This document shows, piece by piece, positions 1-40,249 of a stretch of DNA of 52,116 nt; within the stretch, counting starts at the first letter, position 1, and each line of letters opens with the position of its first letter. The position numbers were made by a program, and so were the translations under genes. The stretch covers positions 1-52,116 of the IMG/VR virus record IMGVR_UViG_3300027704_000032; one strand, written 5' to 3'. A model generated the notes under the pieces. It searched no databases. It worked only from the letters and a program-made list of their open reading frames with translations, and was not told the DNA's origin. The DNA comes from a virus. Lineage: Duplodnaviria; Caudoviricetes.

Positions 1-2211
1 GGCGTAACAGGTACAGGTGTTTTCCCTCAAGCCCCTGTGACAGGAAGCATGGCTACTGGCTTGCAGACTGCAGGTTTATCTGCTGTACCTGAAACAGTGC
101 AAGCTAGACCTGACTACACTGGCACAACTATGGCTAATCTAACATCACAGTCCCAACAGGGTTTTGGTGGTATGCGTACCTACGAAAATAAAGCTACTGG
201 TCAACAGATAATGATAACAGTAGATGCTTCAGGTAAGCCTATGACGTATGTACCCCCTGGATTTACGCTTAAGCAAGGCATGTACAAAGGTGGTGCTGTA
301 CAAGGCTATGCTGAAGGTGGTTCAACCGACAGGATGCTGGAAGCTAAGTTTCGCATTGCAGAAATGAATGGTTACTCTGGACCTAAAACTAATGCGTCTC
401 TTAATGCCTATGCAAATGCTAGCCCTGCTATGACTGCTAAATTTAATGCTATCGGTGCCTCTATGAATAAGGGTGGTATGGTTAAATTTTTTGATGAAGG
501 GGGTGTAGTTGATCATGCTCATCCTCATGACGGTTGGCAAAGTGCTACAGTTTCTGATGCAGATGCAGCAAATACCGCACAAGCAGATCAATTTCAAAGT
601 ATGCAACAAAACTTAGTTGCACAAACCATGCAACCTATGCAGTCTAATGTGGGTATGATACAACCTCAAGCTGCAGACTTTATAGGCTCTACTGCAGGTC
701 AAGCAACAGCTGTTGCACCTATGGCTCAAGTTGCGCAAGTGGGTAGTGTTCAGCAAGCACAGATGCCTATGATGACTCCCTCTGCTACATTTGATTCGTT
801 AGCGGTAGCCCCACAAGTAGCAGCTGAAACAGCTTCTATGCAGGCTGCTCAAGGTACAGTATCAGATCAAGCTCAGACCACAGCACAGCAACAACTTACA
901 TCCGGTGTCACTGGTATGTCTGCTGCTCAAGGTACAGCCACTATGGTTAATGCCCCTGCTGCACGTGAAATACAGTCAGGTGAGATTATCTCTGGTGTAG
1001 CTGATGCTGAGAAGGCTGCTACATTTAATGAGCAGATCCAAGCGGCTACTGCTACACCTTCTGCACAAGCTACTGTAGCAGGCCAACTAGAAGGTCTCAT
1101 GCAACAGTTTGAAGGTGGTGCAACACCTACATGGGCTGCTGGTTCCATGAGAGCAGCTACAGCTACGTTAGCTGCCAGAGGTCTTGGTGCTTCTAGCATG
1201 GCAGGGCAAGCAGTTATTCAAGCTACAATGGAAGCTGCAATTCCTATTGCTCAAATGGATGCACAAGTACAGGCACAATTTGAAGGTCAGAACTTGTCAA
1301 ACCGTCAAGCACGTGCTATGCTATCTGCACAACAACGTGCTCAGTTTCTTGGCATGGAGTTTGATCAAGCTTTCCAATCCCGTGTTGCTAACTCAGCACG
1401 TATTGGTGACATAGCTAATATGAACTTTACTGCAGAACAAAACGTTGCTCTTGAGAACTCTCGTGCTGCTAATACCATGAACCTTAACAACCTGTCTAAC
1501 AGTCAGGCTATGGTAATGGCTGAAGCTGCAGCTTTGTCTAACTTAGACATGGCTAATCTAAATAACCGGCAACAGTCTGCTGTACAAAATGCTCAGAACT
1601 TTATGCAGATGGACATGACTAACTTGTCCAACCTACAGCAAACTCAAATGTTTAGGGCACAACAAAACATTCAGTCTATGTTTACTGACCAAGCTGCAGA
1701 AAATGCTTCTAAACAATTTAATGCTGCTAGTGAGAACCAGACCAATCAGTTTTTTGCTAACCTATCTGGTCAGACTTCACAATTCAATGCTTCTCAGCAG
1801 AATGCAATGGATCAGTTCAACGTCAACTCAGTCAATGCTCTGCGTGAGTTTAACTCTGAGATCCAGCAACAGCGTGACTTGTTCAATGCACAGAATGGCC
1901 TTGTGATAGCACAGTCTAATGCCCAGTGGCGTCAGAACTTAGCTACACTTAACACAGCCGCTCAGAATGATAGTAACAGAGAATTTGCTGCCACTATGAA
2001 TGGTTTGACTGCTGGTAACTTAGAGCAGATATGGCAACGTGAACGAGACATTATGGACTACTCTTATAGAACTGCTAAAGACCAACAAGATCGTGCTCTT
2101 AGTATTGTACTTGCCGATAAAAAATATGAAGAGTATGCAAAGGTAAGGGCTGATGATGAGGAGACCAATATGTTCGAGTTTTTCACAACCAAAATCTTAG
2201 GTCTTAAGTAA
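1..2211 (+). CDS. Internal virion (ejection) protein, Ala/Gln/Asn/Met-rich coiled coil; 5'-truncated (frame open from base 1)
   Basis: Frame 1 has no stop from position 1 (GVTGTGVFPQAP...) to TAA at 2211. Long low-complexity QN/AQ helical region. Lies after the tail genes and before an SLT-bearing gene, as podoviral internal core proteins do. Confidence 0.6.
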   Translation, partial: GVTGTGVFPQAPVTGSMATGLQTAGLSAVPETVQARPDYTGTTMANLTSQSQQGFGGMRTYENKATGQQIMITVDASGKPMTYVPPGFTLKQGMYKGGAVQGYAEGGSTDRMLEAKFRIAEMNGYSGPKTNASLNAYANASPAMTAKFNAIGASMNKGGMVKFFDEGGVVDHAHPHDGWQSATVSDADAANTAQADQFQSMQQNLVAQTMQPMQSNVGMIQPQAADFIGSTAGQATAVAPMAQVAQVGSVQQAQMPMMTPSATFDSLAVAPQVAAETASMQAAQGTVSDQAQTTAQQQLTSGVTGMSAAQGTATMVNAPAAREIQSGEIISGVADAEKAATFNEQIQAATATPSAQATVAGQLEGLMQQFEGGATPTWAAGSMRAATATLAARGLGASSMAGQAVIQATMEAAIPIAQMDAQVQAQFEGQNLSNRQARAMLSAQQRAQFLGMEFDQAFQSRVANSARIGDIANMNFTAEQNVALENSRAANTMNLNNLSNSQAMVMAEAAALSNLDMANLNNRQQSAVQNAQNFMQMDMTNLSNLQQTQMFRAQQNIQSMFTDQAAENASKQFNAASENQTNQFFANLSGQTSQFNASQQNAMDQFNVNSVNALREFNSEIQQQRDLFNAQNGLVIAQSNAQWRQNLATLNTAAQNDSNREFAATMNGLTAGNLEQIWQRERDIMDYSYRTAKDQQDRALSIVLADKKYEEYAKVRADDEETNMFEFFTTKILGLK

Positions 2212-2222
2212 GGAATAAAAAC

Positions 2223-3119
2223 GTGGCAGAGTACACAAAAATTTTAAATACCGCTAGGGAACAAGCAGATGCTAGACTAGCACCAGTAAGTAATAGTTCT
2301 TTTCAAAATACACTTGATGAGGCCGGGGATAGTAATCTACTTAGGCCAAGTAATCGTGGGTTGATGGCGGCTAAGGTACCTTCGGTTGCTTTTACTGGCA
2401 GAACTTCTATTGCTGACGAGGTTGAAGAAGATGACTTCTTAACCAGTTACTTTAATCGTCTACGTGAGCAGAACAAAACTACTAAAGCTGAGGTGCAAAA
2501 ATACTTTGATGATAACCCTGAAAGTATTGCTGTTGAGGGTAGGGAAGCAGAGTTTGTTGGGGGGTTTAACCTACCTAAAAATCTAGTTGGTAAAAGAGGG
2601 ACTGAGGATGTAGAAGTTGCAAGCCAATCTTACTTTAACTCCGACATACTAGATAGAAAATACGGCGGTAACTCTCGTGAAGCTGGTGATGTTTCTCTTG
2701 AGGTACAGCAAAGAGTTATTAAATCAATCATAAATGAGGGTTCTAGAGTAGGACTAAGTGACAAAGAAATTGCAATTGCTTTAGCAACAGCCAGGCATGA
2801 ATCAGGTTTTAATCCAGATGCATCTGCAAAGTCTAGTAGTGCAACAGGCATTGGGCAATTTATCAACGATACTGGGACTGCCTACGGAATTAAAGATACT
2901 AACCGTTGGGATATGGATACGCAAGTAGATGCTTTAGTAAATCACGTATATGATAATGCTAAGCTTGCCCGTAAGAAGGGTTATGGAGATGAGTACATCT
3001 ACGCTCTTCATCATGATGGCCCTGCTCTTGATAGAACTGGCTTAAGTAAATCAAAAGAACTTGTAATGCCATATGTAAGTGGGTACCTAAAATTAATTAA
3101 AGAGTTCAGAGGAAACTAG
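2223..3119 (+). CDS. Internal virion protein with C-terminal lytic transglycosylase (SLT/lysozyme-like) domain
   Basis: ARHESGFNPDASAKSSSATGIGQF matches the SLT ES..N...A.G..Q signature. GTG start with AAGGA upstream. Confidence 0.75.
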   Translation: MAEYTKILNTAREQADARLAPVSNSSFQNTLDEAGDSNLLRPSNRGLMAAKVPSVAFTGRTSIADEVEEDDFLTSYFNRLREQNKTTKAEVQKYFDDNPESIAVEGREAEFVGGFNLPKNLVGKRGTEDVEVASQSYFNSDILDRKYGGNSREAGDVSLEVQQRVIKSIINEGSRVGLSDKEIAIALATARHESGFNPDASAKSSSATGIGQFINDTGTAYGIKDTNRWDMDTQVDALVNHVYDNAKLARKKGYGDEYIYALHHDGPALDRTGLSKSKELVMPYVSGYLKLIKEFRGN

Positions 3120-3120
3120 T

Positions 3121-3678
3121 ATGTTTAACGCACCGATACCAGGACAGTCACTTACTTCTGAGCCTAGAAACTATCCTTGGGAAAACCCACCTGAGTTTCC
3201 TGATGCAGAAGGAGCACTGTTGTTCCACATGGACAGGCTAAAAAAGCCTGACATAATGGAAGCTGTTGCAGGACTTCTAACCCTAGGTCTCGATGTTGTA
3301 ACTCTTACAGAAGGTATCTTGAGAGGTGGTGTTGCTGATGGTCGTCACAGTATAGATATATCTATGTTAATTGGGCCTATTGTACACGAGTATATTGTAG
3401 GGGTAGCGGACGCTGCTGGGATTGATTATGACGAGGGTCTTGAAGAAGAAGAGATGGATCTAGAAAGAGTTAAGTACTCAGTCAGATCTAAAGAGGCCAA
3501 GAAGATCTTGGAAGAGATTAAGTCTGATGAAGATATAGATTTAGGTGATATGGAATCTGACATGCCAGAAGGAATGGACATGCAAGAGGATACTGCGGAT
3601 ATTCTTGAAGAAGAACTTGAAGATATGGTAGTAGAAGAAGAGAAGCCGATGGGCTTAATGTCTAGGGGGACTGTCTAA
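3121..3678 (+). CDS. Hypothetical acidic protein, internal virion cluster
   Basis: 185-aa ORF beginning APIPGQSLT..P..YPWE.PP with an acidic C-terminus; tightly packed with its neighbours. Confidence 0.6.
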   Translation: MFNAPIPGQSLTSEPRNYPWENPPEFPDAEGALLFHMDRLKKPDIMEAVAGLLTLGLDVVTLTEGILRGGVADGRHSIDISMLIGPIVHEYIVGVADAAGIDYDEGLEEEEMDLERVKYSVRSKEAKKILEEIKSDEDIDLGDMESDMPEGMDMQEDTADILEEELEDMVVEEEKPMGLMSRGTV

Positions 3679-4748: not shown

Positions 4749-7700
4749 TGAGCAATATAAATAATCTTCTAGAGAAGTACGAGGAGACACCTCAAGAAGA
4801 CGAGGCGTCTGTATTGGATACTGTGCCTGAAGTTCAAACTCAGGGCAGTAATATTCAAGATTTAAGTACCCGTTATCCAGATCAATCTGAAGTAGATACA
4901 AGTACCTCAAACATAGAAAAATTAGTGGGAAAAACTACAAACAATAGTAGGACACTACCATCTGAACAACTAGGTTTTGTAGACTTAGATTCTGTGTTCG
5001 AAGAGTACGGTCGTAAACTAATTAAAGAAGACTTCCTAGAAGATGATCGTCTGATGGATGTGGTGTACCAAAGTCTTGAAGCTAGGTATCAACCTGCTGG
5101 TGTCATAGGTACTACCTACCGTGGTGTCTCTGGCCTAGCTGGTGGTGATACTGGTGGCGGTGCTTTTGGCCCTCGTGACTATAGAACTATGGATAAAGAA
5201 GATGCCTTTGAGATATGGCAGAACTATCAGCGTTCATTTACTGGTGGTCAGAGTATTACGACAGCTAATGAAATAGCTATGAGTCTATCTGCAGATGACA
5301 GTGTACGTAATAAACTAGGTGCAGGGTACTTACTTTTTGATCAGATGGACAATGCGTTTACTGGTGAAGGCTCATGGGCTGAAATGGGTGATGCCACTTG
5401 GGACTATACTAAGGCAGCTATATATGATCCTACTACACTGTTGTCGTTTGGCTTAGGTAAAGTCCTTACCTTTGGTGCTACTAAAGCATCAACTGCAGCA
5501 GTTAGACTAACAATGATTAAAGGTTTTCAAGCCTACGTTAAGAATGGTATGTCAAAGACAGCTGCACGTCAGGCTGTAGGCAAAGTAGTAGCTAAAGTTG
5601 CTCCAGTTGTAGCAGCTGAGGCTATAATTAATGTGGGTGTAGATGCTGCATATCAAATGCAACTCATGGGTACAGGTGCTCAAGAAGAATTTAGTGGGTC
5701 ACAGTCAGCAATGGTTGCAGCAGGTTCTATCCTTATGCCAGCAGTATTGTTTGGAACCAGTGGTGCAGTGAGTGGACTTAGAAGGTCCGACTTCCTAAAG
5801 GATAGTTGGATAGGCTCTAAAGAATTAGATGTTGCAGCACTGAAGATGGATGCAAAAACTGCAATGGCAGAGTCAAGGAAGCGTATAAAGAACAAACAAC
5901 TTATAGATACTGTTGATGAAAACTTTGGAAGAATCTCAGGTGGTGACGCTGGCTTCATGGCTTGGGAAACTATTAAAGTTAAAGCCAAATCTGCAATTGC
6001 TAGGAAGCAAGAGATAGATACTGACACAGAAACAATGAATATTTTTATGTCTAATTTTTGGCAAGGAGCTAAAGATGGTAGCACAAAGGGTTACTATGCA
6101 GCACTTAGAGAAGCTGGTTTTAGGGCAACCCCCGCCATGATAGATGAATATAAAATTACAGGTACTTTTGCTCAAACTATTATGTTTTTAAAACCAAGTA
6201 CAGTAAAAAATATAATGACTACTTTTGAAAAAGAAACGGGAAGAAAGCTTAACATCAAAAAGACACCAGCAGGTCTGAGAGATCATATGATCAAACAAGC
6301 TTCTGATGCTGGTGGGACATTGAAGCTTTCTTCTCAGTTGTCTCGCCTAGAAAAATTAAGAGGTGCAGAACTTACCACTGCACTTAAGAATATGGGTACG
6401 GGTAAGATGCCCAGCGATCCAAAGAAGTTGCAGTTTGCATTGTCTGTTTATAAAAGACTTATTACCTCACACCTATCTACTACAGGTGCTAACGTAAAAG
6501 GTTTTGCTCAACTAGTGTCCCTTAACACAGCGGCTGATCTATTTACCTCTGCAATTGACTACACTATAGCTGGGGGAGCAAAGTTAGCTGGCAAAACTGA
6601 TGTTGCAAAAATATACTCTGACCGAGGCTATGGTTCTTTTCTTGGTGCTCTTCGTAGAGGTGCCTCAGTATTGTCACCTGAGTTAGATTATAAGTTTGGT
6701 CAACAAATACTAGAGTTAAACCCTAAGACAGCTGAAACTCTTTTCAGAGATGTAAGTGGTGATGGTGGTGTTAGAGATGCCCTTGAGCACTTCAATCTAG
6801 ATCCTAAGGGTAAGGTAGACTCTGAAGGTAAACTAATAAATAAAGATGCGACACTAGACCCCAACAGTTTAACATACCTCACAGCTAAGGGTATGGATTC
6901 AGTGACCAAAGGTGCTCAGACAGTTACACTGGTTAGAATGCAGGACGAGATTACTAAGACTTGGGCTTTTGGTACTAACGTAAATCAATACATCATGCGT
7001 GAGTATGGTACCACACCTCAAAAATTCTTTGCTAAAAGTGATGCAGCACTTGAGATGGCATCCGATAGATTTCAAAAGAACGTACTTGAAAAAGCTGCCT
7101 TCCGTACTATGAGGGAGACTGCTTCTGTAAACTGGTCTACACTGCCAGCTAACAATGTATTTAGATCGGCAGCAAGATTCATTGAACAGATAACTAACAA
7201 AACTCCTATTGGTTTTATCGTACCCTTCGGTAGCTTTTTGAATACAACCATAGCTACAATGGGTGACCTATCTGGATTCAATGCTATAAGATTTAGTCTC
7301 GAAAAAATGACAGGTAAGAAACACGACTTTGCAACTCAAGAGGGTGCTGAAGCTTTTGGTCGTATGGCCGCTGGCTGGTCTGCTGTAGGCCTTGGTACCT
7401 ACGCTGCAGGTGGTGCAATAGATAGGGTAAAGGAAGGTCTAGCATGGAACCAAGAGAGAAATTCCGATGGTTCTATAGGAGATGTAACATTTGACTGGCC
7501 CTACTCTACTATTAGAGTTGTTGAACAAATGCTTGCACATTCTACTAAAGGTAACCCCAATCCATTTGAGGGTCTTAAGGATATCTCTTTTAAAGAAATA
7601 CCTGATGATCTATGGGCGGAACTTAGGAACCAACTAGGTGGTCAATCAGTACGTGATTTAAAAGATTTTGAGAGGAGTCTTTTAGAATACGGTAATAATT

Positions 7701-8515
7701 TATTAGAGCTTAAAGAGTCTGAACTTATTACTGGAGAGTTTGCGGGACCATTACTTAGTACTGTTGTCGAAACATTGGAAGACTTAATTCTCCCACCTGC
7801 CGGTAGAGTAGTTCAAGGTATGTCTCGACCACTCGATCCAGTGAATCAAGTTTGGGGTTTAGTATCAGACAAGAACATGACACCTGACCTAAGACAAGGG
7901 CCTGAGAAATACAATCAGGCAATAAAGTATGTCAATAATCTTTTTGATAGTTTAGGTCTACCTTCCTCGACTGACCTACCTAGAAGAGCTATGCCTACCC
8001 GTGGTACAAATCTCAAGGTAGATCCAGGTAAACAAATACTTGGTGTTCGTGGATCTCGTGAGCCTAACCTAATAGAGACTATGCTGAATGCATCTGGTAT
8101 GTCATCTTGGAAAGCTATTAAGTTTGATGGGCCAGCTGAGGTTAAAAACTATATGGATGGTATGGTAGCACCATACTTAGAATCTTCTGCAAGAAGATAC
8201 TTGAAAAAAAATCCAGAGTTCTTTAAGATGAATCAGGCAGACAAAGAAAAAATAGTTAAGTCTCTTATCGAAGAAGCCAAGGGTAATGTACTAAAGACAA
8301 TGCAGTCAGGGCCAATACCACGTAGTTTAGAAATGGTCAGGGTCTTGTCTGGTAAAAATAAAGATGAAGTTAAAAATGTTATGAAGTTCCTTGGCATTGA
8401 GGGCGAGCTAGAAGACCTATTAAAAAAGGAGGATGCACTAAGCACCCTCCAGAAAATTGATATGTTAGTAAAGAACTACGACAAGATCTTCCACGGTGAC
8501 CTTAAGATAGACTAA
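4748..8515 (+). CDS. Large internal virion (ejectosome-like) protein
   Basis: 1255-aa ORF, last gene of the structural arm, with Gly/Ala-rich hydrophobic helical stretches; analogous in position and size to T7 gp16-type proteins. Confidence 0.6.
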   Translation: MSNINNLLEKYEETPQEDEASVLDTVPEVQTQGSNIQDLSTRYPDQSEVDTSTSNIEKLVGKTTNNSRTLPSEQLGFVDLDSVFEEYGRKLIKEDFLEDDRLMDVVYQSLEARYQPAGVIGTTYRGVSGLAGGDTGGGAFGPRDYRTMDKEDAFEIWQNYQRSFTGGQSITTANEIAMSLSADDSVRNKLGAGYLLFDQMDNAFTGEGSWAEMGDATWDYTKAAIYDPTTLLSFGLGKVLTFGATKASTAAVRLTMIKGFQAYVKNGMSKTAARQAVGKVVAKVAPVVAAEAIINVGVDAAYQMQLMGTGAQEEFSGSQSAMVAAGSILMPAVLFGTSGAVSGLRRSDFLKDSWIGSKELDVAALKMDAKTAMAESRKRIKNKQLIDTVDENFGRISGGDAGFMAWETIKVKAKSAIARKQEIDTDTETMNIFMSNFWQGAKDGSTKGYYAALREAGFRATPAMIDEYKITGTFAQTIMFLKPSTVKNIMTTFEKETGRKLNIKKTPAGLRDHMIKQASDAGGTLKLSSQLSRLEKLRGAELTTALKNMGTGKMPSDPKKLQFALSVYKRLITSHLSTTGANVKGFAQLVSLNTAADLFTSAIDYTIAGGAKLAGKTDVAKIYSDRGYGSFLGALRRGASVLSPELDYKFGQQILELNPKTAETLFRDVSGDGGVRDALEHFNLDPKGKVDSEGKLINKDATLDPNSLTYLTAKGMDSVTKGAQTVTLVRMQDEITKTWAFGTNVNQYIMREYGTTPQKFFAKSDAALEMASDRFQKNVLEKAAFRTMRETASVNWSTLPANNVFRSAARFIEQITNKTPIGFIVPFGSFLNTTIATMGDLSGFNAIRFSLEKMTGKKHDFATQEGAEAFGRMAAGWSAVGLGTYAAGGAIDRVKEGLAWNQERNSDGSIGDVTFDWPYSTIRVVEQMLAHSTKGNPNPFEGLKDISFKEIPDDLWAELRNQLGGQSVRDLKDFERSLLEYGNNLLELKESELITGEFAGPLLSTVVETLEDLILPPAGRVVQGMSRPLDPVNQVWGLVSDKNMTPDLRQGPEKYNQAIKYVNNLFDSLGLPSSTDLPRRAMPTRGTNLKVDPGKQILGVRGSREPNLIETMLNASGMSSWKAIKFDGPAEVKNYMDGMVAPYLESSARRYLKKNPEFFKMNQADKEKIVKSLIEEAKGNVLKTMQSGPIPRSLEMVRVLSGKNKDEVKNVMKFLGIEGELEDLLKKEDALSTLQKIDMLVKNYDKIFHGDLKID

Positions 8516-8745
8516 TCATCATCTAACATATGGTCCGCCCAATCATAGGCTTCTCGTTTGACATCATCAACACGAACAGACCCCTGTCTACCAGATAGTA
8601 ACCCCGCAAGAGCTTGTCCTGCAAGGTACAGTCTGGCGGTCAGGGGTTTATCTTTTAGTGCCTTCGCATCCCTGAAGTCCCTCGCTTCTTCTAGCAAGGT
8701 GTTCTTTTTCTTAGGTCTACCTACAGGCTTACCAGTACTACTCAT
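8512..8745 (-). CDS. Hypothetical protein (N-terminal GRPKK AT-hook-like; AGQALAGLL...AY..AD.ML motif common in phages)
   Basis: 77-aa ORF with AGGAGG RBS and ATGA overlap with phoH. Confidence 0.65.
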   Translation of the reverse strand: MSSTGKPVGRPKKKNTLLEEARDFRDAKALKDKPLTARLYLAGQALAGLLSGRQGSVRVDDVKREAYDWADHMLDDD

Positions 8746-29324: not shown

Positions 29325-29516
29325 ATGAAGGGTGTAAAGCACTATAAAAAAGATGGTACTGAACATAAAGGCAGTACTCATAAAATGAAAGACGGGTCTT
29401 TACACAGTGGTAAGACACACACTAAAACAAGTGTAAAATTATTTCACTACAAAGACCTAAGTAAAATAGCAAAGGCTAAAGCAGATGGCGCTAGCAAAAA
29501 GTCAAAAAAGTCTTAA
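29325..29516 (+). CDS. Small His/Lys-rich protein (HKMxDG motif)
   Basis: 63 aa, AAGGA RBS. Confidence 0.65.
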   Translation: MKGVKHYKKDGTEHKGSTHKMKDGSLHSGKTHTKTSVKLFHYKDLSKIAKAKADGASKKSKKS

Positions 29517-29922
29517 GTCTTGGGGTAAAGAAGACTGGGGTACTAAGAGTGGTAAGCCTAGCGGTAAGACCGGCGAGAGATACCTACCTAAGAAGGCTAG
29601 GGAGTCCTTGTCGTCAGCTGAGTATGCATCTACGACTAAAGCTAAGCGCAAGGGTACAGCTGCAGGTAAGCAGTTTGTTAAACAACCAAAAGAAATCGCA
29701 AAGAAAACTTCAAAATTTAGAGCAGCAGAAGGTGGACTTACTATGAAAAAAGGTATGCATAAGATGCCTGATGGCAGCATGATGAAAAACTCGGATATGA
29801 AATCAGGGTACATGTACGGTGGCATGACTAAGAAGCCTATGAGATCTGGTTATGGACATGGTGGAATGGTTAAAGCTAATTGTGGTGCGTCCATGAAGGC
29901 AACCCAAGGTAAAAATAAATGA
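29485..29922 (+). CDS. Basic protein: DUF5872-like C-terminal half plus Met/Gly-rich tail
   Basis: QKSL..W..EDW.TKSG, RYLP..A...LS..EY..T..AKR, GKQFV; tail carries HKMPDG and Y.xGGM motifs. Confidence 0.7.
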   Translation: MALAKSQKSLKSWGKEDWGTKSGKPSGKTGERYLPKKARESLSSAEYASTTKAKRKGTAAGKQFVKQPKEIAKKTSKFRAAEGGLTMKKGMHKMPDGSMMKNSDMKSGYMYGGMTKKPMRSGYGHGGMVKANCGASMKATQGKNK

Positions 29923-31223: not shown

Positions 31224-31253
31224 TTGCATTATTAGCATTGGTATGTTATAACT
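31224..31253 (+). promoter_or_regulatory. Promoter upstream of DUF1127/terminase genes
   Basis: TTGCAT-N17-TATAACT. Confidence 0.55.
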
Positions 31254-31309
31254 GTTTATGTAAAACTATCCTAGCCCAAGTAAGGGTTTACTTAAATTAG
31301 GATAGAGCA

Positions 31310-31483: not shown

Positions 31484-31829
31484 AAAACAACAGGCATTCT
31501 TGGATGCATTGTTTGAAGAAGCCGAAGGCAACCCTGTTAAAGCTCTTAAGCTTGCAGGGTATGCCGAAGGCACGTCTTCTACTACTCTCATGTCCGCTTT
31601 AAAAGAAGAAGTAGCTGAGAAAACTAAAGACTTCATCGCAACTCGTGGACCAGCAGCAGCTTGGGCTATGATGCAGGTAATGAGATCACCCACCGACTTG
31701 GGCAACAAAGAGAAGATGGCAGCTGCAAAAGACTTTATGGATCGTGCTGGTTTTGTTAAGACTGACAAGATTGAAGTAAGATCAGAAAGTCCTTTGTTTA
31801 TACTGCCTCCGAAAGAAAATGAAAACTAA
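31464..31829 (+). CDS. Putative terminase small subunit
   Basis: LTEKQ..F...G....A...AGY N-terminal HTH; AA...DRAG; upstream of terL. Confidence 0.65.
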   Translation: MGRNLTEKQQAFLDALFEEAEGNPVKALKLAGYAEGTSSTTLMSALKEEVAEKTKDFIATRGPAAAWAMMQVMRSPTDLGNKEKMAAAKDFMDRAGFVKTDKIEVRSESPLFILPPKENEN

Positions 31830-32250
31830 AACTTGGAAATTACCTAAACCTGAAGAGGTTGGGGGTGAATGGGAATGGGTACCTTTAGTAAGAGTAGGAA
31901 GATTTCTTCCATTTGGCTATAGACAAGACCCTAGTGATGCTGATATACTATTACCAGTCCCAGAAGAACTAGAGCTTTTTGAACAAGCTAAGAAACACTT
32001 AAGTCAGTACAGTTACCGTGAGGTATCTGCGTGGTTAAGTGAAACTTCTGGTAGGTATATCTCCCATGTAGGTTTGTTTAAGAGGGTTAAGATTGAGCAA
32101 AAACGTAAGGCAGCAACTTCAATCCAACGCTTCTACGCCGAAAAATATAAAGAAGCAGCTGAAAAAGCCGAAAAGCTTGAAAGCAACCGCCTTGGCAAAA
32201 GACAGCCAGTCGGAAAAAGTTCCAGCGCAGGTAAAGCCAGCACCGATTGA
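31819..32250 (+). CDS. Hypothetical protein (PFGY and HTH-like YS.REV..WL)
   Basis: 143-aa ORF between terS-like gene and terL. Confidence 0.6.
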   Translation: MKTKTWKLPKPEEVGGEWEWVPLVRVGRFLPFGYRQDPSDADILLPVPEELELFEQAKKHLSQYSYREVSAWLSETSGRYISHVGLFKRVKIEQKRKAATSIQRFYAEKYKEAAEKAEKLESNRLGKRQPVGKSSSAGKASTD

Positions 32251-33655
32251 TGTAGAAAAGGCTCAACGGGAGATTCTCTTTGAGCCTAACCCAGGCCCAC
32301 AGACAGACTTCCTTGCCTCTACTGAGCAAGAGGTACTCTATGGTGGATCAGCCGGGGGCGGTAAGTCCTACGCAATGGTAGCTGATCCAGTCCGCTACTT
32401 GAATAACCCTAACGCCCAGATGCTTTTAGTTCGTCGTAGTACAGAGGAACTGAGGGAGCTTATTTCAGTATCTAAACAACTATACCCACGTGCTATCCCC
32501 GGTATTAAGTTTATGGAAAGAGATAAGACTTGGGTAGCTCCTAGTGGTGCTACTCTCTGGATGTCTTATCTTGATCGTGACGATGATGTCATGAGATATC
32601 AAGGACAGGCCTTTAATTGGATTGGCTTTGATGAGCTTACCCAGTGGGCCTCACCTTACCCTTGGAACTATATGAGGTCACGCTTACGTTCTACCTCAAC
32701 CAGTGGACTACCCCTCTATATGAGAGCTACTACTAACCCTGGAGGTCCAGGTCACCAGTGGGTTAAGAAGACTTTTATTGACCCCGGTACACCTAGGAAA
32801 CCTTTCTGGGCTACTGATACTGAAACTGGTGAGACTATTGCTTGGCCTAAAGGTCACTCAAGAGAAGGCCAACCTTTATTTAAAAGAAGATTTATTCCTG
32901 CTACTTTGTTTGACAACCCCTATCTTGCAGATGATGGTATGTATGAAGCTAACCTTTTGTCCCTTCCAGAGCATCAACGAAGACAGTTGCTTGAAGGAGA
33001 TTGGGATGTTAATGAAGGTGCAGCTTTCCCAGAGTTTAATAGAAACATACATGTCATTGAACCCTTCGAGATACCAAACAGTTGGACAAGATTTAGAGCC
33101 GCAGATTACGGATACGGATCTTACAGTGGCATAGTCTGGATTGCAGTTGCACCTGATGAACAACTGATTGTCTATCGTGAGATGTATGTACAGAAAGTTT
33201 TAGCCACAGATCTAGCTGATATGATACTGGAAGTAGAGTCTGAAGAAAAGATACGTTACGGTGTACTCGACAGTTCTTTGTGGCACAAACGTGGTGACAC
33301 TGGACCCTCTCTAGCAGAGCAAATGATTGTTAAAGGATGCCGATGGAGACCTGCAGATAGATCTAAAGGTTCTCGTGTATCAGGTAAAAATGAAATACAT
33401 AGGCGACTACAAGTCGATGACTTCACAGAAGAACCTAGGTTAGTTATCTTTAATAACTGTAGGAATTTAATTTCACAACTCCCATCTATACCATTAGATA
33501 AAAACAACCCTGAAGATGTAGACACTCACGCAGAAGATCACCTCTATGACGCACTACGTTACGGTGTAATGACACGACCAAGAAGTAGTTTATTTGATTA
33601 TAACCCAGCTTCAAACACAGGGTTCCAAGCAAGTGATCCTAATTTCGGTTACTAA
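32093..33655 (+). CDS. terL: Terminase large subunit (true start may be TTG 32192 or later)
   Basis: YGGSAGGGKS Walker A, FDELTQ Walker B, ATTNPGG motif III, RNase H-like DYG and DH.YDALRY. Confidence 0.95.
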   Translation: MSKNVRQQLQSNASTPKNIKKQLKKPKSLKATALAKDSQSEKVPAQVKPAPIDVEKAQREILFEPNPGPQTDFLASTEQEVLYGGSAGGGKSYAMVADPVRYLNNPNAQMLLVRRSTEELRELISVSKQLYPRAIPGIKFMERDKTWVAPSGATLWMSYLDRDDDVMRYQGQAFNWIGFDELTQWASPYPWNYMRSRLRSTSTSGLPLYMRATTNPGGPGHQWVKKTFIDPGTPRKPFWATDTETGETIAWPKGHSREGQPLFKRRFIPATLFDNPYLADDGMYEANLLSLPEHQRRQLLEGDWDVNEGAAFPEFNRNIHVIEPFEIPNSWTRFRAADYGYGSYSGIVWIAVAPDEQLIVYREMYVQKVLATDLADMILEVESEEKIRYGVLDSSLWHKRGDTGPSLAEQMIVKGCRWRPADRSKGSRVSGKNEIHRRLQVDDFTEEPRLVIFNNCRNLISQLPSIPLDKNNPEDVDTHAEDHLYDALRYGVMTRPRSSLFDYNPASNTGFQASDPNFGY

Positions 33656-33664
33656 GGAAAAATC

Positions 33665-35794
33665 ATGGCAGAAGAAGACAACAACTTTACCAGCGACGAA
33701 ATGTATATGGATGACATAGAGTCTTCTCATATTGAAGACCGTGGTGATCCAGAGGATTACAATGACCCGACTGTTGGTAACATTGTAGGATTCGTTGAAC
33801 AGAAGTTCTCTAAAGCTGACACTGCACGTCACTCTGATGAGCAACGCTGGATTAAAGCATACAGAAACTATCGTGGTATCTATGGGCCAGATGTTCAGTT
33901 TACTAGTACTGAAAAGTCTAATATCTTTGTTAAGGTTACAAAGACTAAAGTACTTGCAGCTTATGGACAGATCACTGACGTACTGTTTGGCGGCAATAAG
34001 TTTCCTATCACTATTGACCCCACAACACTTCCAGAAGGTGTGTCTGAGTCTGTTCACTTTGATAGCAACCCACAGGTTGATCAGATGAGTAAGCAAGCTG
34101 GTGATGATGAGCTTCAGAAACTCATGCCCGGTGAAACCCTTGTAGACTTTAAAGAAAGAGTCGGAGGTATGCAGGGTAAGCTTTCTCCTGTAGAAGATAA
34201 ACTCAAAGAAGGTCCAGGTACTACACCTACAGCCATTACCTCTCACCCTGCAATGGTTGCAGCTAAGAAGATGGAAAAGAAAATACATGACCAGCTAGAA
34301 GAGTCCAACGCCAATAAGCAACTACGTACAGCTGCTTTTGAATGCGCACTCTTTGGTACTGGTATTATGAAAGGTCCATTTGCTCTTGATAAAGAGTATC
34401 CAAACTGGGATGAAAACGGTGACTACAATCCAACCATTAAAACTGTGCCACAAACCTCTAGTGTTTCTATCTGGAACTTGTACCCTGACCCTGATGCTTC
34501 TAATATGGAAGAAGCTTCCTATATAATTGAACGTCATAAGATGTCTCGCAGCCAGCTACGTGCTTTGAAGCGTAGACCTTTCTTCCGTGAGAATGCTGTA
34601 GATGCTGCTATTGACATGGGTGAGTCCTACACTAAAGAGTGGTGGGAACAAGTCATGGAAGATGCAGGTCAGGAAACTAAATCAGAACGGTATCAAGTAC
34701 TAGAGTTCTGGGGATATGTAGATACTTCTATGTTAGAAGATCATGACATTGATATTCCTAAAGAGTTAAAAGATGCAGAAGAAGTAAGCGTTAATATCTG
34801 GATCTGTAATGGACAAGTACTCCGTCTTGTAATGAATCCGTTTACTCCTTCATACTTACCTTACTATGCAGTACCCTTCGAGGTCAATCCTTACAGCTTC
34901 TTTGGTGTAGGTATTGCTGAGAACATGGACGACACACAGACCCTGATGAACGGCTTCATGCGTATGAGTGTAGACAATGCTGCACTGTCAGGTAACTTGC
35001 TCATTGAGATTGATGAGACTAACTTAGTACCGGGACAGGATCTATCTGTGTACCCCGGCAAAGTCTTTAGGCGTCAAGGGGGTGCTCCTGGTCAGAGTAT
35101 CTTCGGAACTAAGTTCCCCAACGTATCTAATGAGAACATGCAGATGTTTGACAAAGCACGTCAACTCTCTGATGAGTCTACAGGCTTAGCATCATTCTCC
35201 CACGGACAGACAGGTGTATCTGGAGTAGGTAGAACTGCATCAGGTATCTCAATGCTTATGTCAGCTGCTAATGGTAGCATCAGGACTGTAGTTAAAAACG
35301 TAGATGATTATCTACTAGGTCCACTGGGTAAAGCTTTCTTTAGCTTTAATATGCAGTTTGACTTCGACCCAGAGATCAAAGGTGACTTGGAAGTTAAAGC
35401 ACAAGGTACTGAAAGCCTGATGGCTAACGAAGTACGTAGTCAAAGACTTATGCAGTTTCTTGGTGTCGTTAGTAACCCAGCCCTTGCACCTTTTGCAAAA
35501 ATGGATTATATTGTTCGTGAGATTGCAAAAAGCATGGACCTTGATCCTGACAAAGTTGCAAACTCTCTGGGTGATGCTGCTGTACAAGCAGAGATCCTCA
35601 AGAAATTCCAAGAAGCTAATCCACCACCAGCACCACCTCCAGGTGCACCTGCACCTCAGGGAGGCCCACAGGGTGCTCCAGCAGGGGTACAAGTACAAGA
35701 CACCACTGGAAGTGGTGGAGGTCAGATAGGTACAGGTACAGCCCCAACTCCAGGTGAGCAAGGTTTCTCAGCTAATACAGGTCCAGTTCAATAA
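33665..35794 (+). CDS. Portal protein
   Basis: 709 aa after terL; FGTGIMK, G.GIAE...Q..MN, RTASG..ML and a Pro/Gly tail. Confidence 0.88.
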   Translation: MAEEDNNFTSDEMYMDDIESSHIEDRGDPEDYNDPTVGNIVGFVEQKFSKADTARHSDEQRWIKAYRNYRGIYGPDVQFTSTEKSNIFVKVTKTKVLAAYGQITDVLFGGNKFPITIDPTTLPEGVSESVHFDSNPQVDQMSKQAGDDELQKLMPGETLVDFKERVGGMQGKLSPVEDKLKEGPGTTPTAITSHPAMVAAKKMEKKIHDQLEESNANKQLRTAAFECALFGTGIMKGPFALDKEYPNWDENGDYNPTIKTVPQTSSVSIWNLYPDPDASNMEEASYIIERHKMSRSQLRALKRRPFFRENAVDAAIDMGESYTKEWWEQVMEDAGQETKSERYQVLEFWGYVDTSMLEDHDIDIPKELKDAEEVSVNIWICNGQVLRLVMNPFTPSYLPYYAVPFEVNPYSFFGVGIAENMDDTQTLMNGFMRMSVDNAALSGNLLIEIDETNLVPGQDLSVYPGKVFRRQGGAPGQSIFGTKFPNVSNENMQMFDKARQLSDESTGLASFSHGQTGVSGVGRTASGISMLMSAANGSIRTVVKNVDDYLLGPLGKAFFSFNMQFDFDPEIKGDLEVKAQGTESLMANEVRSQRLMQFLGVVSNPALAPFAKMDYIVREIAKSMDLDPDKVANSLGDAAVQAEILKKFQEANPPPAPPPGAPAPQGGPQGAPAGVQVQDTTGSGGGQIGTGTAPTPGEQGFSANTGPVQ

Positions 35795-35991
35795 TGCATA
35801 ATCTTAAACCTATGGTAAATGATAGACCTATGTGGGAATCTTTTCTTGCAGAGTTACAAGAACGTCTCAATGATGTACATAGACAAATGGAACAAGCTCA
35901 TACTCCCGAAGATCTATTTCGTTTGCAAGGCCAAGCAGCCTGCCTAAACAAGTTTAAATTCTTGAGGGATAAAGTTAATGGCGGAAACTAA
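35794..35991 (+). CDS. Small helical protein following the portal
   Basis: 65 aa with R.QG...L motif; TAATG coupling. Confidence 0.7.
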   Translation: MHNLKPMVNDRPMWESFLAELQERLNDVHRQMEQAHTPEDLFRLQGQAACLNKFKFLRDKVNGGN

Positions 35992-38900
35992 AAAATCTCT
36001 ACGTCCCAAAGCTAGACCTAAAGGATTAGGTTTAAGTTCTACTCGTCCTCGTTCACGCCCATTGTCTGATGAAGAGGGTATGGCAAAGCAAGAAGCTGCT
36101 GCAGTTAAACAAGCACAGTCCTTAGACCAAGTACGAGAGTTTGGTAACCTAGAGTTTAGAGCTGACATGGACAAACAGCTTAAGTGGAATCCCCTAGCTA
36201 GGTTGGGTTTTGAACCAGATCAATCTGTTGTTGCAAGGCCAGCTTACAATAGCCCAGAGATGTACGAGGGTATGAGGTACCCATACCGTGCTGAACAAGA
36301 GTACATTGATGACACTCTTAGCAGGGCGACTAGTGGCTCAGTTTATGCAGATATAGCAGGAAGAGTTAAGCCAGGTTTCGTTATAGTAAATTCTAACACA
36401 GCCAAAAACCCAATATGGTCCCATGAGTACACCCACGGTGGTTTAGAAAAAATAATAGAATACCTAAACGAAGATAAAGAGTACTTTAAAGAAAAGTACG
36501 GAACAGATACAGTTAAACTTTTAGAAAAAATTGAAGTTGATACAAATACAGAGAAAGGACCAAATGAAAAACTGACTGAGATGTTGGATGATATTTCTAA
36601 AGATGCTGACGTAGACATAAGTGGTAACGTAATACCTGCTGCTGGAACTGGCTTGGGTACTATGGATAAGACAAGGTCTGCTGTATCAGACCACGAAGCA
36701 AGTACAGACCGAGTTCAACTAAGAAGAAATCTAGAAGAAGGCAGGGTAAATGATGCCGATATGAGTACTAGAGTATTCTTCGAACAGAACCTACCAGGGT
36801 ATGCTGGCATTTTTAAAGCTGCTGAAGACATGCTTGAAAAACAAGGTGAACCATTACCTTCTAAGAAAAGAGGTTGGGGGGAACAGAAGGCTAACAAATG
36901 GTTATCGGGTGAAGGGTTTTTCAATGAGGGTGGTGATGTAGCCACTCAAACAGAAGAAGCCTTAGGCTGGACTGCTGAGGGTAAGAAGTTTGCCGAAGCT
37001 AATCCAGTTAATATAAAAGCTCCTGAAGGATTGTCTATTAAAAATGTTCCTGCATTTGACAGGCCAATGAGTGCTGGTCCTAAAGACAAGTGGACCGGCA
37101 GACAAGATGAGCTAGGTAACCGTGAGTATAAATCACAGTTAGATGGCTCAACTTATTTTATTAAACCTGACGCTGATCAACGTACAGAACTAGAAAAAAT
37201 ACAGCAGGATATTATTCCAGCAGTTACAAAGTATTTAGAGAACCCAACCGCACCATCAAAAGAACAAACGATAGAGTTTTTAAAAACTGCTGCAGGAGAT
37301 GCTTGGGAAACAATCAGCATTCCTGGTGATCTTGTGTCTGGAGATAAAACTCTTGGTGACATTACATTGGGCGATGTCTTTGAAATAGGTGGTAGTGCTG
37401 CTGTTGCTTCTCTTCCTATGAGTGTACCAGAGGGTTCTATGAGAACTTTTGGTGGTTCTAATCCACCTACTTATGAGCCACGTTCCGAGCCTTTAGATTC
37501 GTATAGCGGAGACGGTCTCTCACAAGAAAATCTAGATCTTTTTAATACGAACTTTATAATGTTTCGTGAACCTATTATAAAGTTTGCCGAGACTGTAGAC
37601 ATACCTAAGAAAGGTCTTCTAGGTTCTGAGTTTCTTACTCTAATCAAAAAGAACAACTCCATACCTGAGACTTCTCTGCAAGAGGGTATCATAGAACCTA
37701 AAAAGAGATATACTAAAAACGAACTTTTAGAAGCCATAGGCCCAGAAGAATATAGAAGTGGCACTTTTAAATCTGTTGCAAACATTGCACCGGACAAACC
37801 AAAACAATTCGAAGCATTTCAAAGACAGGGAAGAGATGCTGGATTTGAAGGTGGACGAGAACTACAGTATTTTGACATACCTATAGATACTAGTATTGGC
37901 TTTCCAGGTAAAAAATTTAAAGCCAACGAGCAACATTACAATAGTGATACGCTTGTGCACGTAAGAGGTTCTATTATTAACCCTCAAGATGGCGGTTTTG
38001 AGAACACAGATTTTTTGAAGGTTATCGGGGGAGAAGACTATCTTCTTGTAGAGGAGATTCAATCTGACCTTTTAACTAAGGGTTTCGTAAGACCTAAAAA
38101 TAAATTTGATGCAGATTTTTCAAATGCTACTGATGACTTCAGTCGATTTAAAATGGTGTCATATGGAGAAGCTTTTGGTTCTATAGATAAAGAAATTAAA
38201 AGTGTAGTTAAAGAACTTGAAATTGATGTCGGTAAGAAAACTACAGATTTAATATACTCTATACTAGATCGTCCTTTTTCAAGGACTCATACCCCTAAAG
38301 AAACTACTGCCTTGCTGAATTACCACGAGTTAATACAAAAAAAATTAACTGATAAAAAAATAGATAACGAAATAGGTACTTTAGAACTAGACAGTATTTA
38401 TCAAGCGTACCTAACAAATAAAAAGATCTCTGATACCTATTCAAACCCTAACGATATTGGCCTCCCCCCAATAAGAAAAAATAAACAGGCCGTAGACGAA
38501 GCTTTAAAAATACTTATAGCTAAAGCAGCGCAGTCTGATGTAACTAAGATAGTCATACCCCCAGCTGAAAGAATTGCATTAGCAAGAGGTAGGAAGTTAC
38601 AAGAAGAAAAAGGTGACCGATTTTACAGGACGTATGTTACTGATCTTCAAAAATCTTTAAGTGAGCTTCAGGACAATTACCCTGTTAAAATATATAGAGA
38701 AGAGTTACCATACAAAAGACATGAAGACTTTGTAGGTTTTGTATCAGAAGAAATAGTAGATGAACCGGGTTTTGAAAAAACTCGTGTAAACACCAGTACA
38801 AGTAAAATAGGTACAATAATTGATATTACAGAACTAGTAGATAAATACAAAGTAGAAAAACCAAGACAGTTTGCCCAAGGAGGCGTAGTAGAAGACATGA

Positions 38901-40249
38901 ATAGACAAATGGAAATGTTCGCAGTAGGTGGACTTAGCGACGATGGCATGACCCGTGACCCAGTGTCAGGTAATGATATTCCCCCAGGTTCTATGGCAGA
39001 AGAAGTACGGGACGATATCCCAGCACAACTCTCTGAGGGTGAGTATGTCGTACCTGCTGATGTTGTACGTTTCTTTGGTGTAAAATACTTTGAAGATCTA
39101 CGCATGGAAGCTAAAATGGGCTTGTCAAACATGGAAGCTAATGGTAGAATAGGTGGTGAACCTGTTCCTTCCGGTGGTCCTATGGCTGGTCCTACTGAAG
39201 GTGCTCTCACTCCAGAAGAGATGGCAGTACTCTCTGACATGGGTATGAACGTAGGTGGATTTGTGCCACAACAACCTCCTGTACAAGCTATTGGTAATGC
39301 TCAGCAAGGTATGGACAGAGGTTATGCCCCAGGTGGTCAAGTTGTTCCTATGCCTGGTCCTACTGAAAGCCTTTCAACAGAAGCAGCAGTTGTTGCCCCT
39401 ACATATAACCAACCACCAAGCTTTAATACAGAAGACTACGGGCTTGGATTTAGTGTCTTTGGACAACCATCTAGTACAGCTACAACGCCTGGTAAATTTA
39501 CTACAGTTACTTTGTATGGCCCTAATAAAGAAGTAATGACACTTACTTTACCAACCCAACAGGCTGAGTACGATGGGCTTATTTCTGAAGGTTACACTAC
39601 ACAACCACCAGGTACAGTTGCAAATATTGAAAAGGACAACAGTCCTCCTATTATTCCTACAAATAGTGATACAGGTAAAGGTGGTAAGAAATTTAGCGAG
39701 ATGGATGTAGCTGAAATAACAGAAGCCTACAATGACAACTTAAAAGCACGTACAGTTCTGACAGGAATGTCTTTAGTTAATCCTATCTTTGGTAGTATTG
39801 GTGTGGCAGTAACTAACTATGCACAAAAACAAATTATAACACAAATGAATAAACTAGAAGTTAAAGTCCCTGAAGACAAGGGCTTTCTTTCTAATCTTGG
39901 GGGCACTATCAAAGATATATTTGGTACTGGTGATAAAGATCCGAAAAAATCTGCTGTTAGTACTAGCACTGAAACAGCACCTGCAATATCTCTAAGACCT
40001 AAGCCAAGACCCCCAGTGCTTGAGGAATCTGACGATGGTAAGCCTGCAGACTTTGGGGGTACGGTAGAGGCCGCTGAAATTTCTGCTGCAGCAAAAGCAT
40101 CTAAGACTCCTGAAAATCTACAAAAAGTAAAGGCCAAAAGTGAAGCTGCTTACAAAGCTGCAACGAGTACTAAAAAAGAATTAGATTCTACATATGGAAG
40201 TGGGTTAAATAAAGGCGGCTTGATGAAAAAAAAGAAAAAGAAGAAGTAA
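35978..40249 (+). CDS. 1423-aa multi-domain (polyvalent-like) protein: HExxH domain, EEIQSD domain, DDIPAQLSEGEYV domain
   Basis: HEYTH at aa 149-153, EEIQSD at aa 692, DDIPAQLSEGEYVVPADVV at aa 1012; lies between portal and scaffold. Confidence 0.7.
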   Translation: MAETKKSLRPKARPKGLGLSSTRPRSRPLSDEEGMAKQEAAAVKQAQSLDQVREFGNLEFRADMDKQLKWNPLARLGFEPDQSVVARPAYNSPEMYEGMRYPYRAEQEYIDDTLSRATSGSVYADIAGRVKPGFVIVNSNTAKNPIWSHEYTHGGLEKIIEYLNEDKEYFKEKYGTDTVKLLEKIEVDTNTEKGPNEKLTEMLDDISKDADVDISGNVIPAAGTGLGTMDKTRSAVSDHEASTDRVQLRRNLEEGRVNDADMSTRVFFEQNLPGYAGIFKAAEDMLEKQGEPLPSKKRGWGEQKANKWLSGEGFFNEGGDVATQTEEALGWTAEGKKFAEANPVNIKAPEGLSIKNVPAFDRPMSAGPKDKWTGRQDELGNREYKSQLDGSTYFIKPDADQRTELEKIQQDIIPAVTKYLENPTAPSKEQTIEFLKTAAGDAWETISIPGDLVSGDKTLGDITLGDVFEIGGSAAVASLPMSVPEGSMRTFGGSNPPTYEPRSEPLDSYSGDGLSQENLDLFNTNFIMFREPIIKFAETVDIPKKGLLGSEFLTLIKKNNSIPETSLQEGIIEPKKRYTKNELLEAIGPEEYRSGTFKSVANIAPDKPKQFEAFQRQGRDAGFEGGRELQYFDIPIDTSIGFPGKKFKANEQHYNSDTLVHVRGSIINPQDGGFENTDFLKVIGGEDYLLVEEIQSDLLTKGFVRPKNKFDADFSNATDDFSRFKMVSYGEAFGSIDKEIKSVVKELEIDVGKKTTDLIYSILDRPFSRTHTPKETTALLNYHELIQKKLTDKKIDNEIGTLELDSIYQAYLTNKKISDTYSNPNDIGLPPIRKNKQAVDEALKILIAKAAQSDVTKIVIPPAERIALARGRKLQEEKGDRFYRTYVTDLQKSLSELQDNYPVKIYREELPYKRHEDFVGFVSEEIVDEPGFEKTRVNTSTSKIGTIIDITELVDKYKVEKPRQFAQGGVVEDMNRQMEMFAVGGLSDDGMTRDPVSGNDIPPGSMAEEVRDDIPAQLSEGEYVVPADVVRFFGVKYFEDLRMEAKMGLSNMEANGRIGGEPVPSGGPMAGPTEGALTPEEMAVLSDMGMNVGGFVPQQPPVQAIGNAQQGMDRGYAPGGQVVPMPGPTESLSTEAAVVAPTYNQPPSFNTEDYGLGFSVFGQPSSTATTPGKFTTVTLYGPNKEVMTLTLPTQQAEYDGLISEGYTTQPPGTVANIEKDNSPPIIPTNSDTGKGGKKFSEMDVAEITEAYNDNLKARTVLTGMSLVNPIFGSIGVAVTNYAQKQIITQMNKLEVKVPEDKGFLSNLGGTIKDIFGTGDKDPKKSAVSTSTETAPAISLRPKPRPPVLEESDDGKPADFGGTVEAAEISAAAKASKTPENLQKVKAKSEAAYKAATSTKKELDSTYGSGLNKGGLMKKKKKKK

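Follow-up and report, generated by a model that had tools for sequence, protein, structure and literature searches.

The window analyzed here, 52,116 nucleotides (nt) long, corresponds to the entire IMG/VR virus record IMGVR_UViG_3300027704_000032, which is linear and about 94% complete. Among named phages, the Roseobacter phages CRP-9 and CRP-13 and the Puniceispirillum phage HMO-2011 are closest to it, which makes the window an HMO-2011-type marine podovirus. Three of its proteins carry copies of a short peptide tag, [F/Y/M]-x-x-G-G, which was counted with the strict pattern [FYML]xxGG. These are an internal protein (open reading frame, ORF, 1-2211, open at the 5' end), a small basic protein (29485-29922) and a protein of 1423 amino acids (aa; 35978-40249), and all of them are encoded on the plus strand. 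In the internal protein, MYKGG (280-294) is followed 9 aa later by its tandem partner YAEGG (307-321), and MNKGG (463-477) has FDEGG (490-504) as its tandem partner. The basic protein contains YMYGG (29809-29823), YGHGG (29851-29865) and a weak tag, AAEGG (29722-29736), which is without a hydrophobic residue at the first tag position. The 1423-aa protein contains FNEGG (36920-36934), FAQGG (38870-38884), FAVGG (38918-38932), MNVGG (39245-39259), YAPGG (39323-39337) and, at its C-terminus, LNKGGLM followed by seven lysines (40205-40246). These 13 sites are those listed in the original prediction, and all of them translate as it gave them at these positions; V, M or L is found at +2 in 9 of them, and the spacing within tandem pairs is 9, 9, 14, 16 and 26 residues. 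Two further [FYML]xxGG sites, YTHGG (36428) and FEIGG (37379), occur in the 1423-aa protein outside the earlier list.

The 1423-aa protein is encoded two genes after the portal gene and consists of a variable N-terminal extension and a conserved C-terminal core. Its domain order comprises a domain with an HExxH motif, the tag F-N-E-G-G, a middle region of approximately 630 residues, the tag F-A-Q-G-G (tag 1 before the core), and a module, at aa 981-1090, to which the tag FAVGG (tag 2) belongs. The HExxH domain (36122-36934), a candidate zincin-type peptidase, carries the motif H149-E-Y-T-H153 (nt 36422-36436) and has FNEGG at its end. The core element of the module, DDIPAQLSEGEYVVPADVV... (38996-39100), is centred on D-D-I-P-A-Q-L-S-E-G-E-Y-V, contains a GE[YF]V element of the tape measure type, and gives a profile match to the C-termini of tape measure proteins. 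In agreement with the original prediction, D-x-I-P-A joined to GEYV occurs only once in the window, at 39011, while a D-I-I-P-A at 37208 is without the GEYV part. MNVGG and YAPGG lie after the core. The sole hydrophobic 19-residue segment of the protein is found at 39755-39811 (aa 1260-1278, Kyte-Doolittle mean of 1.65), and similar Gly-rich hydrophobic stretches are seen by eye in the relatives from the phage records G001 and G004. The seven-lysine tail (40220-40249) is encoded by an A-rich run, A8-G-A5-G-A2-G-A2-G.

The tags exceed what is expected by chance, both in comparison with shuffled sequences and with the other ORFs of the window. In 1000 shuffles of each protein, the mean number of [FYML]xxGG sites was 0.63 for the internal protein, 0.43 for the basic protein and 1.83 for the 1423-aa protein, versus 4, 2 and 8 observed, values that were reached in 1, 62 and 0 of the 1000 shuffles, respectively. 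The remaining 60 ORFs are at background, with 10 tags versus 14.2 expected. The same is seen when the residue at position -3 of the GG is considered, which is F, Y, M or L in 14 of 26 cases in the three tagged proteins and in 10 of 75 elsewhere (Fisher p 8.7e-5). Synonymous codons vary among the tag sites, which shows that the signal is at the protein level and rules out a DNA-level repeat as the origin of the tags. The carriers are unrelated, as originally stated, with no similarity apart from the tags (BLASTP, every E-value >0.1). Because these three proteins were picked after the fact, the independent evidence for the tag is its conservation in relatives.

A search with the module region retrieved 79 IMG/VR loci, in which the conserved part consists of the module and about 450-580 further residues, and the sequence before it ranges from 0 to 1287 aa. 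A profile made from a 28-row alignment of the module (A1) matched 3587 cluster representatives at E<=0.001 in a library of 1.84 billion proteins, and the positions of the tags were counted in the best 150 of these. A tag is present 20-75 aa upstream of the core in all of the 139 representatives that have enough upstream sequence to be tested (shuffled control 8), and two or more tags are present there in 134 of them. Downstream of the core, at 40-200 aa, a tag is found in 129 of the 139 representatives (shuffled control 30), and the last 30 aa contain [FMYL]xxGG in 85 of 130 (shuffled control 4). Most of the 40 C-termini inspected have K-G-G-L-[MI] and a Lys-rich end. Over 1749 GG contexts in the family, position -3 shows a 5.3-fold preference for M, 4.85-fold for F and 2-fold for Y, while the values for L, I and V are 0.75, 0.5 and 1.15. 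The fact that M, F and Y are favoured but L, I and V are not indicates a specific pocket and not general hydrophobicity. The same contexts show preferences for A or N at -2, E or K at -1, L at +1 and V at +2.

The tags are conserved whereas the sequence that flanks them changes. The 90 residues upstream of tag 1 are non-homologous among clades, yet the tag stands at their end in 30 distinct sequences, and in one relative (L025) the HExxH domain leads straight into the tag that precedes the module. A gene split exactly after tag 1 is found in one clade (L033, L035, L053 and near-identical loci), where tag 1 makes up the last seven residues of the upstream ORF and the module ORF begins just downstream in an overlapping frame; in L033 the upstream ORF spans 4932-8427 and the module ORF runs from 8430 onward. 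Together with the tag at the end of the HExxH domain and those at the C-terminal ends, this bears out the earlier statement that the tags sit at domain boundaries and termini. In CRP-9 and HMO-2011, which are cultured relatives, the equivalent genes encode tags as well. The tag is, therefore, a genuine short linear motif that is specific and is placed at module boundaries and C-termini. Literature searches, which a motif written in another notation would escape, gave no report of this motif for proteins of podoviruses.

The other two tagged proteins show a comparable arrangement. The gene of the internal protein is cut by the contig end, with the C-terminal 736 aa encoded at 1-2211 and the N-terminal 220 aa at 51455-52114, in synteny with CRP-9 gp41/gp40. 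Full-length relatives have 961-1190 aa, and in comparison with those of 1115-1157 aa approximately 200 codons are missing, which fits the estimate of 94% completeness. No Pfam, PHROG or NCBIfam match was obtained for this protein. In 12 of its relatives, one to three tags are present in the equivalent linker, with sites gained and lost. The basic protein, with 145 aa, is made of a 79-aa N-terminal domain (phrog_14910) and a Lys/Met/Gly-rich tail with the tags. This type of domain is very common as a stand-alone phage domain, being found in at least 600 IMG/VR stretches. Among the sequences listed, about a dozen relatives have a C-terminal extension, and these extensions contain one to three tags. 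The weak AAEGG site occurs in the context F-R-A-A-E-G-G, for which relatives have F-R-A-[SN]-[EK]-G-G, and it resembles the sequence at the cut of the T5 tape measure, P-R/A-E-G-G (the slash marks the cut). In four loci (L122, L125, L130 and L154) an M-A-K-G-G tag joins the basic N-terminal domain to a second conserved domain of about 90 aa that ends in a W-x-x-K-V-K-W-like motif, the tag being again at a domain junction.

Tiny and very basic proteins of 50-100 aa, which consist nearly only of repeats of tag plus lysine, are likewise encoded in marine phage loci, for example at 14314-14574 of L182 (from G001) and by ORFs in L058, L066, L111 and L126. Many of these have a conserved V-P-A-[FY]-A-x-D-G-x-G-K stretch, and they could be basic internal peptides. 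A tblastn search against phages with an 86-aa basic protein made of tags only gave no match, of which the low-complexity filter is the probable cause.

The module provides a link to the tape measure proteins of long-tailed phages. As originally suggested, FAxGG followed by DxIPAxLSxGExV occurs in tape measure C-termini, namely those of lambda, phiE125, LeBron and SIO-2. Alignment of profile A1 with a profile of five tape measure C-termini (A4: phiE125, LeBron, SIO-2, lambda and T5) by hhalign gave a probability of 89.9% and an E-value of 1.7e-6 over 33 columns. Searching with the 35-residue core by tblastn at E<=10 gave 200 phage records, and among the matches listed outside the HMO-2011 group most are annotated as tape measure. 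The element that is common to the core and the tape measures is P-A-x-[LV]-[SH]-x-G-E-[YF]-V, and it is flanked by tags in lambda (733 and 778), phiE125 (1221 and 1277), LeBron (1399) and SIO-2 (1319). In lambda gpH these are F-A-T-G-G at 733 and Y-A-T-G-G at 778, with M-R-D-G-G-L-F at 842-848. As judged by these sequence comparisons, the tag of the window is the same motif that tape measures carry around their GE[YF]V element, close to the C-terminus and in the region where these proteins are cut when the tail matures. The new elements are that the phage is a podovirus and that the tag is spread over several unrelated proteins.

The likeness to the maturation region of lambda gpH and T5 pb2 includes the P-A-x-L-S-x-G-E-[YF]-V core, [F/Y]-A-x-G-G tags on both sides of that core, a further tag-like motif close to the C-terminal end and a hydrophobic Gly-rich stretch. 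On maturation, gpH gives gpH* and gpHC, and pb2 gives pb2* and pb2C. There are, however, differences. Tape measure genes belong to the long-tail module of phages with a long tail, where the tail chaperone genes precede them and the distal tail genes follow. In the podovirus of the window, the gene comes after that of the portal and ahead of the scaffold-like and coat genes. The tape measures have approximately 100 aa after the core, versus approximately 400 aa in the window protein, in which the order of the hydrophobic stretch and the core is reversed, and in the window tags are additionally found in two other unrelated proteins. Neither the window protein nor its module matches PF09718 (Tape_meas_lam_C) or TIGR01541; the tape measure of phiE125 matches PF09718 above the cut-off and TIGR01541 at E 6.6e-20, below the curated cut-off.

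When the module was folded alone with the 28-row alignment, the model had a mean predicted local distance difference test (pLDDT) score of 61, with one confident helix and with the two upstream tags below 50. According to this model, the module alone is not predicted to be a globular domain, and its tags are predicted to be disordered. No protease-like or other family match was obtained for the module in Pfam, NCBIfam and PDB sequence scans, and Pfam, PHROGs and NCBIfam gave no match for the 1423-aa protein. No solved relative was found, given that the only PDB sequence match of A1 was the CAP-Gly domain of KIF13B at E 1.5. This match was treated as chance and a CAP-Gly domain was discarded, as the model also contradicts it by having a helix where CAP-Gly has strands.

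Five further records (G001-G005), taken solely for carrying the domain of the basic protein, were examined for the joint presence of tags and core. The GE[YF]V element is present in G001, G002, G004 and G005, being divergent in G002 and G005, and is absent from G003. Small tag-rich proteins are found in G001, G002 and G005, and G003 shows no excess of tags. Every genome with tag-rich proteins (the window, G001, G002, G004, G005, CRP-9 and HMO-2011) has the GE[YF]V element, in a sample of eight genomes of which two are late regions only and G005 is a 45%-complete fragment. This agrees with the coupling that was originally proposed, and it is equally expected if tag and core are simply features of one kind of protein. 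Because tag and core always stand together in cis, this co-occurrence across genomes is no proof of recognition in trans. In G002, which is a different phage type, a 575-aa protein (L187; 45202-46929, minus strand) has a divergent GEF-I-F-P-A-D-V-V near its C-terminus, preceded by tags, and a G-D-S-T-L-V-H-M-A-P-S-E motif near its N-terminus.

The N-terminal extension of the 1423-aa protein brings in a second known system. The residues H149, E150 and H153 of the HExxH domain are invariant in six sequences with identity as low as 28%, and the domain contains further invariant acidic residues. The domain has no Pfam match, its model is poor, with a pLDDT of 53.6, and of the 109 PDB matches that Foldseek listed at E<=10 not one reached E<=0.001; the peptidase label, therefore, comes from the conserved motif alone. 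On this basis, it is possible that the domain is a zincin-type peptidase without a Pfam family of its own. HExxH is found in the N-terminal extension of 54 of the 150 family representatives and is absent from the other 96. Of five relatives scanned, four match LPD23, above the Pfam cut-off in P0015 and P0050, and three (P0003, P0015 and P0024) match DUF6782, a putative metallopeptidase, above the cut-off only in P0003 and P0024. A look-up in a protein atlas returned only viral hypothetical clusters, of which one, with LPD23 in 51% of its members, scored 0.76 and serves as a lead only.

These domain matches in relatives, together with the HExxH motif, would place the family of the 1423-aa protein with the phage polyvalent proteins described by Iyer et al. 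in 2017 (PMC5512222). As in the polyvalent proteins, a large multi-domain protein with swappable N-terminal domains is encoded beside the packaging genes (PMC5512222), and it is the relatives of the window protein that match LPD23 and a zincin-like peptidase family. The polyvalent proteins have been proposed to be packaged into the head, injected and processed by peptidases of the zincin-like type (PMC5512222). The anchor of the polyvalent proteins is MuF or portal, while that of the present family is the conserved C-terminal core with the tape-measure-type element. No match to Phage_Mu_F or portal domains was found in the 1423-aa protein, and its extension, unlike those of the polyvalent proteins, is without a Pfam domain. 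The main text that describes the polyvalent proteins does not mention a Gly-Gly joint motif, with the word 'glycine' occurring 0 times (PMC5512222).

Direct information on what happens at such motifs comes from tape measures. The T5 tape measure pb2 is cut during maturation after R1127 (PMC10038345), where the sequence is P-R/A-E-G-G-M-M, followed by a GE..EVV stretch. Lambda gpH loses a C-terminal piece of approximately 14 kDa 'from the glycine-rich region', and the 2025 paper on Ur-lambda describes the cleavage site and its catalyst as unknown (PMC12617516). A cut at residues 720-733 of gpH, beside F-A-T-G-G, would yield a piece of 13.0-13.8 kDa. In the structure reported in the same paper, residues ~690-817, which lie within the released C-terminal fragment, are not resolved, whereas residues 818-849 are ordered and bound to the hub protein gpI (PMC12617516). 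For JBD30, a cut at residue 1066 has been predicted only (PMC11445458). Involvement of the host in T5 has reportedly been described by Zweig and Cummings in 1973. These cases offer one experimental precedent for cutting at such a motif, that of T5, and one structural precedent for a terminal tag-like motif that is held by a partner.

The reading that we favour, tentatively and at a little short of an even chance, is that the tag is a joint motif read in trans by a common factor other than the DxIPA module, with cleavage at the internal sites. The three tagged proteins would most likely be packed into the head and ejected ahead of the DNA, and this location, the ejection and the cleavage are what we infer from the comparisons above. 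The tags would act as joints that are recognised in trans by one common factor, and at the internal tags the proteolytic release of modules would be the most likely outcome. This factor may be a host protease or a phage protease, and the 1423-aa protein of the present phage may assist it through its HExxH domain. The C-terminal tags, with their Lys-rich tail, may serve as a point of hold or release.

A related logic is known from T4, in which the capsid-targeting sequence, a short peptide on unrelated cargo, is both a head-targeting signal and the site of the protease gp21. The T4 signal differs from the tags of the window in being N-terminal, in having a different sequence and in being served by a known prohead protease. 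A logic of this kind is what was originally proposed for the window. Double-glycine leaders, which are processed by C39 peptidases, have an upstream consensus that differs from the tag, and no C39 peptidase was seen in the window, where no test was aimed at one.

Several observations weigh against cleavage in trans by a common factor. Scans with Pfam and/or PHROGs of 27 of the 63 window ORFs, a set without small ORFs of the late arm and without the early arm on the minus strand, revealed no prohead protease. HExxH is absent from the ORFs of at least 150 aa in G001 and G004 and from the late regions of CRP-9, where gp54 is a natural example without the motif, and HMO-2011 that were examined, all of which keep their tags. 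The sole mapped cut site, that of T5, has Arg and not F, Y or M at -3. Furthermore, the gene split comes after G-G-L-V but the T5 cut comes before A-E-G-G, which means that different bonds are involved. Tandem tags only 9 residues apart, and tags that have only a Lys tail after them, would be odd as simple cut sites. The M-R-D-G-G-L-F of gpH lies in the ordered, gpI-bound segment 818-849, which favours holding over cutting. Finally, the presence of the three window proteins in the virion and their cutting both rest on inference.

Some of these points lead to the alternative that the tags are a docking signal, which would anchor the cargo on a common partner such as the portal, the hub or nozzle, the capsid interior or the DNA end, without cleavage. 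This alternative is unlikely, although it deserves to be weighed seriously. The preference for F, M and Y and the disfavour of I and L at -3 fit an anchor residue in a pocket, many tags are at extreme C-termini, and the N-terminal protein that has been split off in one clade retains the tag as its last residues. The gpH segment with M-R-D-G-G-L-F that is ordered on gpI would be a parallel. Lysines abound around the tags of the small proteins and around the last tag of the 1423-aa protein, which suggests that these regions touch DNA or acidic surfaces. On the other hand, the partner is hypothetical, the tags in the model of the module are predicted to be disordered, and the T5 cut falls at such a motif. 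The members of the split clade are also very closely related, and the retention of the tag may merely reflect a recent split.

Local processing is improbable. In this reading, the HExxH domain (aa 50-320) would cleave its own protein at the tags and might do the same to the other two. The reading draws on the invariance of the three motif residues, on the presence of HExxH in more than a third of the representatives (54 of 150), on the DUF6782 matches of P0003 and P0024 and, below the cut-off, of P0015, and on the autoprocessing that has been proposed for proteins of this kind (PMC5512222). Against it stand the missing Pfam match, the poor model and the lack of a significant Foldseek match for the domain in the window, and the fact that the representatives and the genomes or parts of genomes without HExxH (96 of 150; G001, G004, CRP-9 and HMO-2011) keep their tags. 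Given that tagged phages without HExxH exist, the embedded peptidase cannot be the general reader, and this version of the explanation is ruled out.

It is quite improbable that the tags are without specific function and simply accompany Gly-rich flexible linkers or result from local duplication. The tags do lie in low-complexity, probably disordered segments, and individual sites turn over among relatives. Nonetheless, shuffles that preserve composition do not reproduce them, there are preferences at -3, -2, -1, +1 and +2, and the tags persist amid unrelated flanks, across unrelated proteins and across phage types.

The weakest explanation, that the DxIPAxLSxGExV module reads in trans the tags carried by other proteins, be it as a protease or as a loading dock, is very improbable, since its extreme conservation (42 of 124 columns invariant) and the presence of GE[YF]V in every examined genome with tag-rich proteins, with G003 having neither, are set against a module that alone is not predicted to fold and on which its own tags do not pack, the lack of a catalytic family match or a solved relative, an equivalent lambda stretch (~690-817) that is not resolved (PMC12617516), and a co-occurrence in only eight genomes that is expected anyway from a core that is always flanked by tags in cis. 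This is the part of the original prediction that is not supported; what stands of its interpretation is a real, conserved and modular tag, with a precedent for processing that is limited to T5 pb2 as reported (PMC10038345).

The order of genes in the late arm is as follows. The large terminase (32093-33655) is followed by an SU10-type portal (33665-35794) and by a 65-aa ORF (35794-35991) that lies between the portal gene and the gene of the 1423-aa protein. The 65-aa ORF is conserved; in other loci, ORFs of 69-79 aa occupy the same position directly upstream of short-form module proteins and have a common C-terminal pattern, L-x-K-x-K-x-L-R-D-x-V-N-G, which was not aligned to the ORF of the window. 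Downstream of the gene of the 1423-aa protein, a 304-aa protein that belongs to an uncharacterised PHROG is encoded in the scaffold position, before the gene of the P22-type coat protein (41514-42587), which is followed by tail genes. Directly after the internal protein gene, a 298-aa ORF (2223-3119) has a lytic transglycosylase-like region and matches PHROGs named internal virion protein with endolysin domain, tape measure and lytic tail protein.

From gene order, the internal protein gene and ORF 2223-3119 would form an operon of internal virion or ejection proteins. This arrangement is similar to that of T7-type internal virion proteins and podovirus ejection proteins, which are large late proteins with a neighbour that has a lytic transglycosylase-like domain. 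No sequence match to the families of T7 gp14, gp15 and gp16 was found in the window proteins that were scanned with Pfam and PHROGs. Hardies et al. place HMO-2011 among the podoviruses with a tubular tail B homologue, and their Table 2 lists no IVP-D homologue for HMO-2011 (PMC4819975).

Taken at the level of sequence, the tag appears to connect marine podoviruses of an abundant group with the part of the tape measure that undergoes a still unexplained maturation. A wider proposal, which for the moment is rather unlikely, would have the tag serve generally as a 'cut here or hold here' label on proteins that pass through the DNA channels of phages, including tape measures, the multi-domain and internal proteins of podoviruses and the tiny Lys-rich proteins, with one conserved reader that is possibly a host protease. 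If this is true, the site and the logic of the maturation cleavage of gpH and pb2 would be identified, and podoviruses would deliver a processed set of cargo modules that includes small basic peptides.

The cleavage of the lambda tape measure has been known since the 1970s, and a motif that recurs in unrelated proteins and in two virion architectures provides a comparative handle on it and yields a concrete prediction for the cleavage of lambda and T5. Even as mere docking points, the tags would represent a new encapsidation signal. A role would be given to conserved proteins that are annotated as hypothetical in GenBank and belong to one of the most abundant groups of marine phages, and the finding suggests that podoviruses pack and inject a modular and exchangeable protein cargo.

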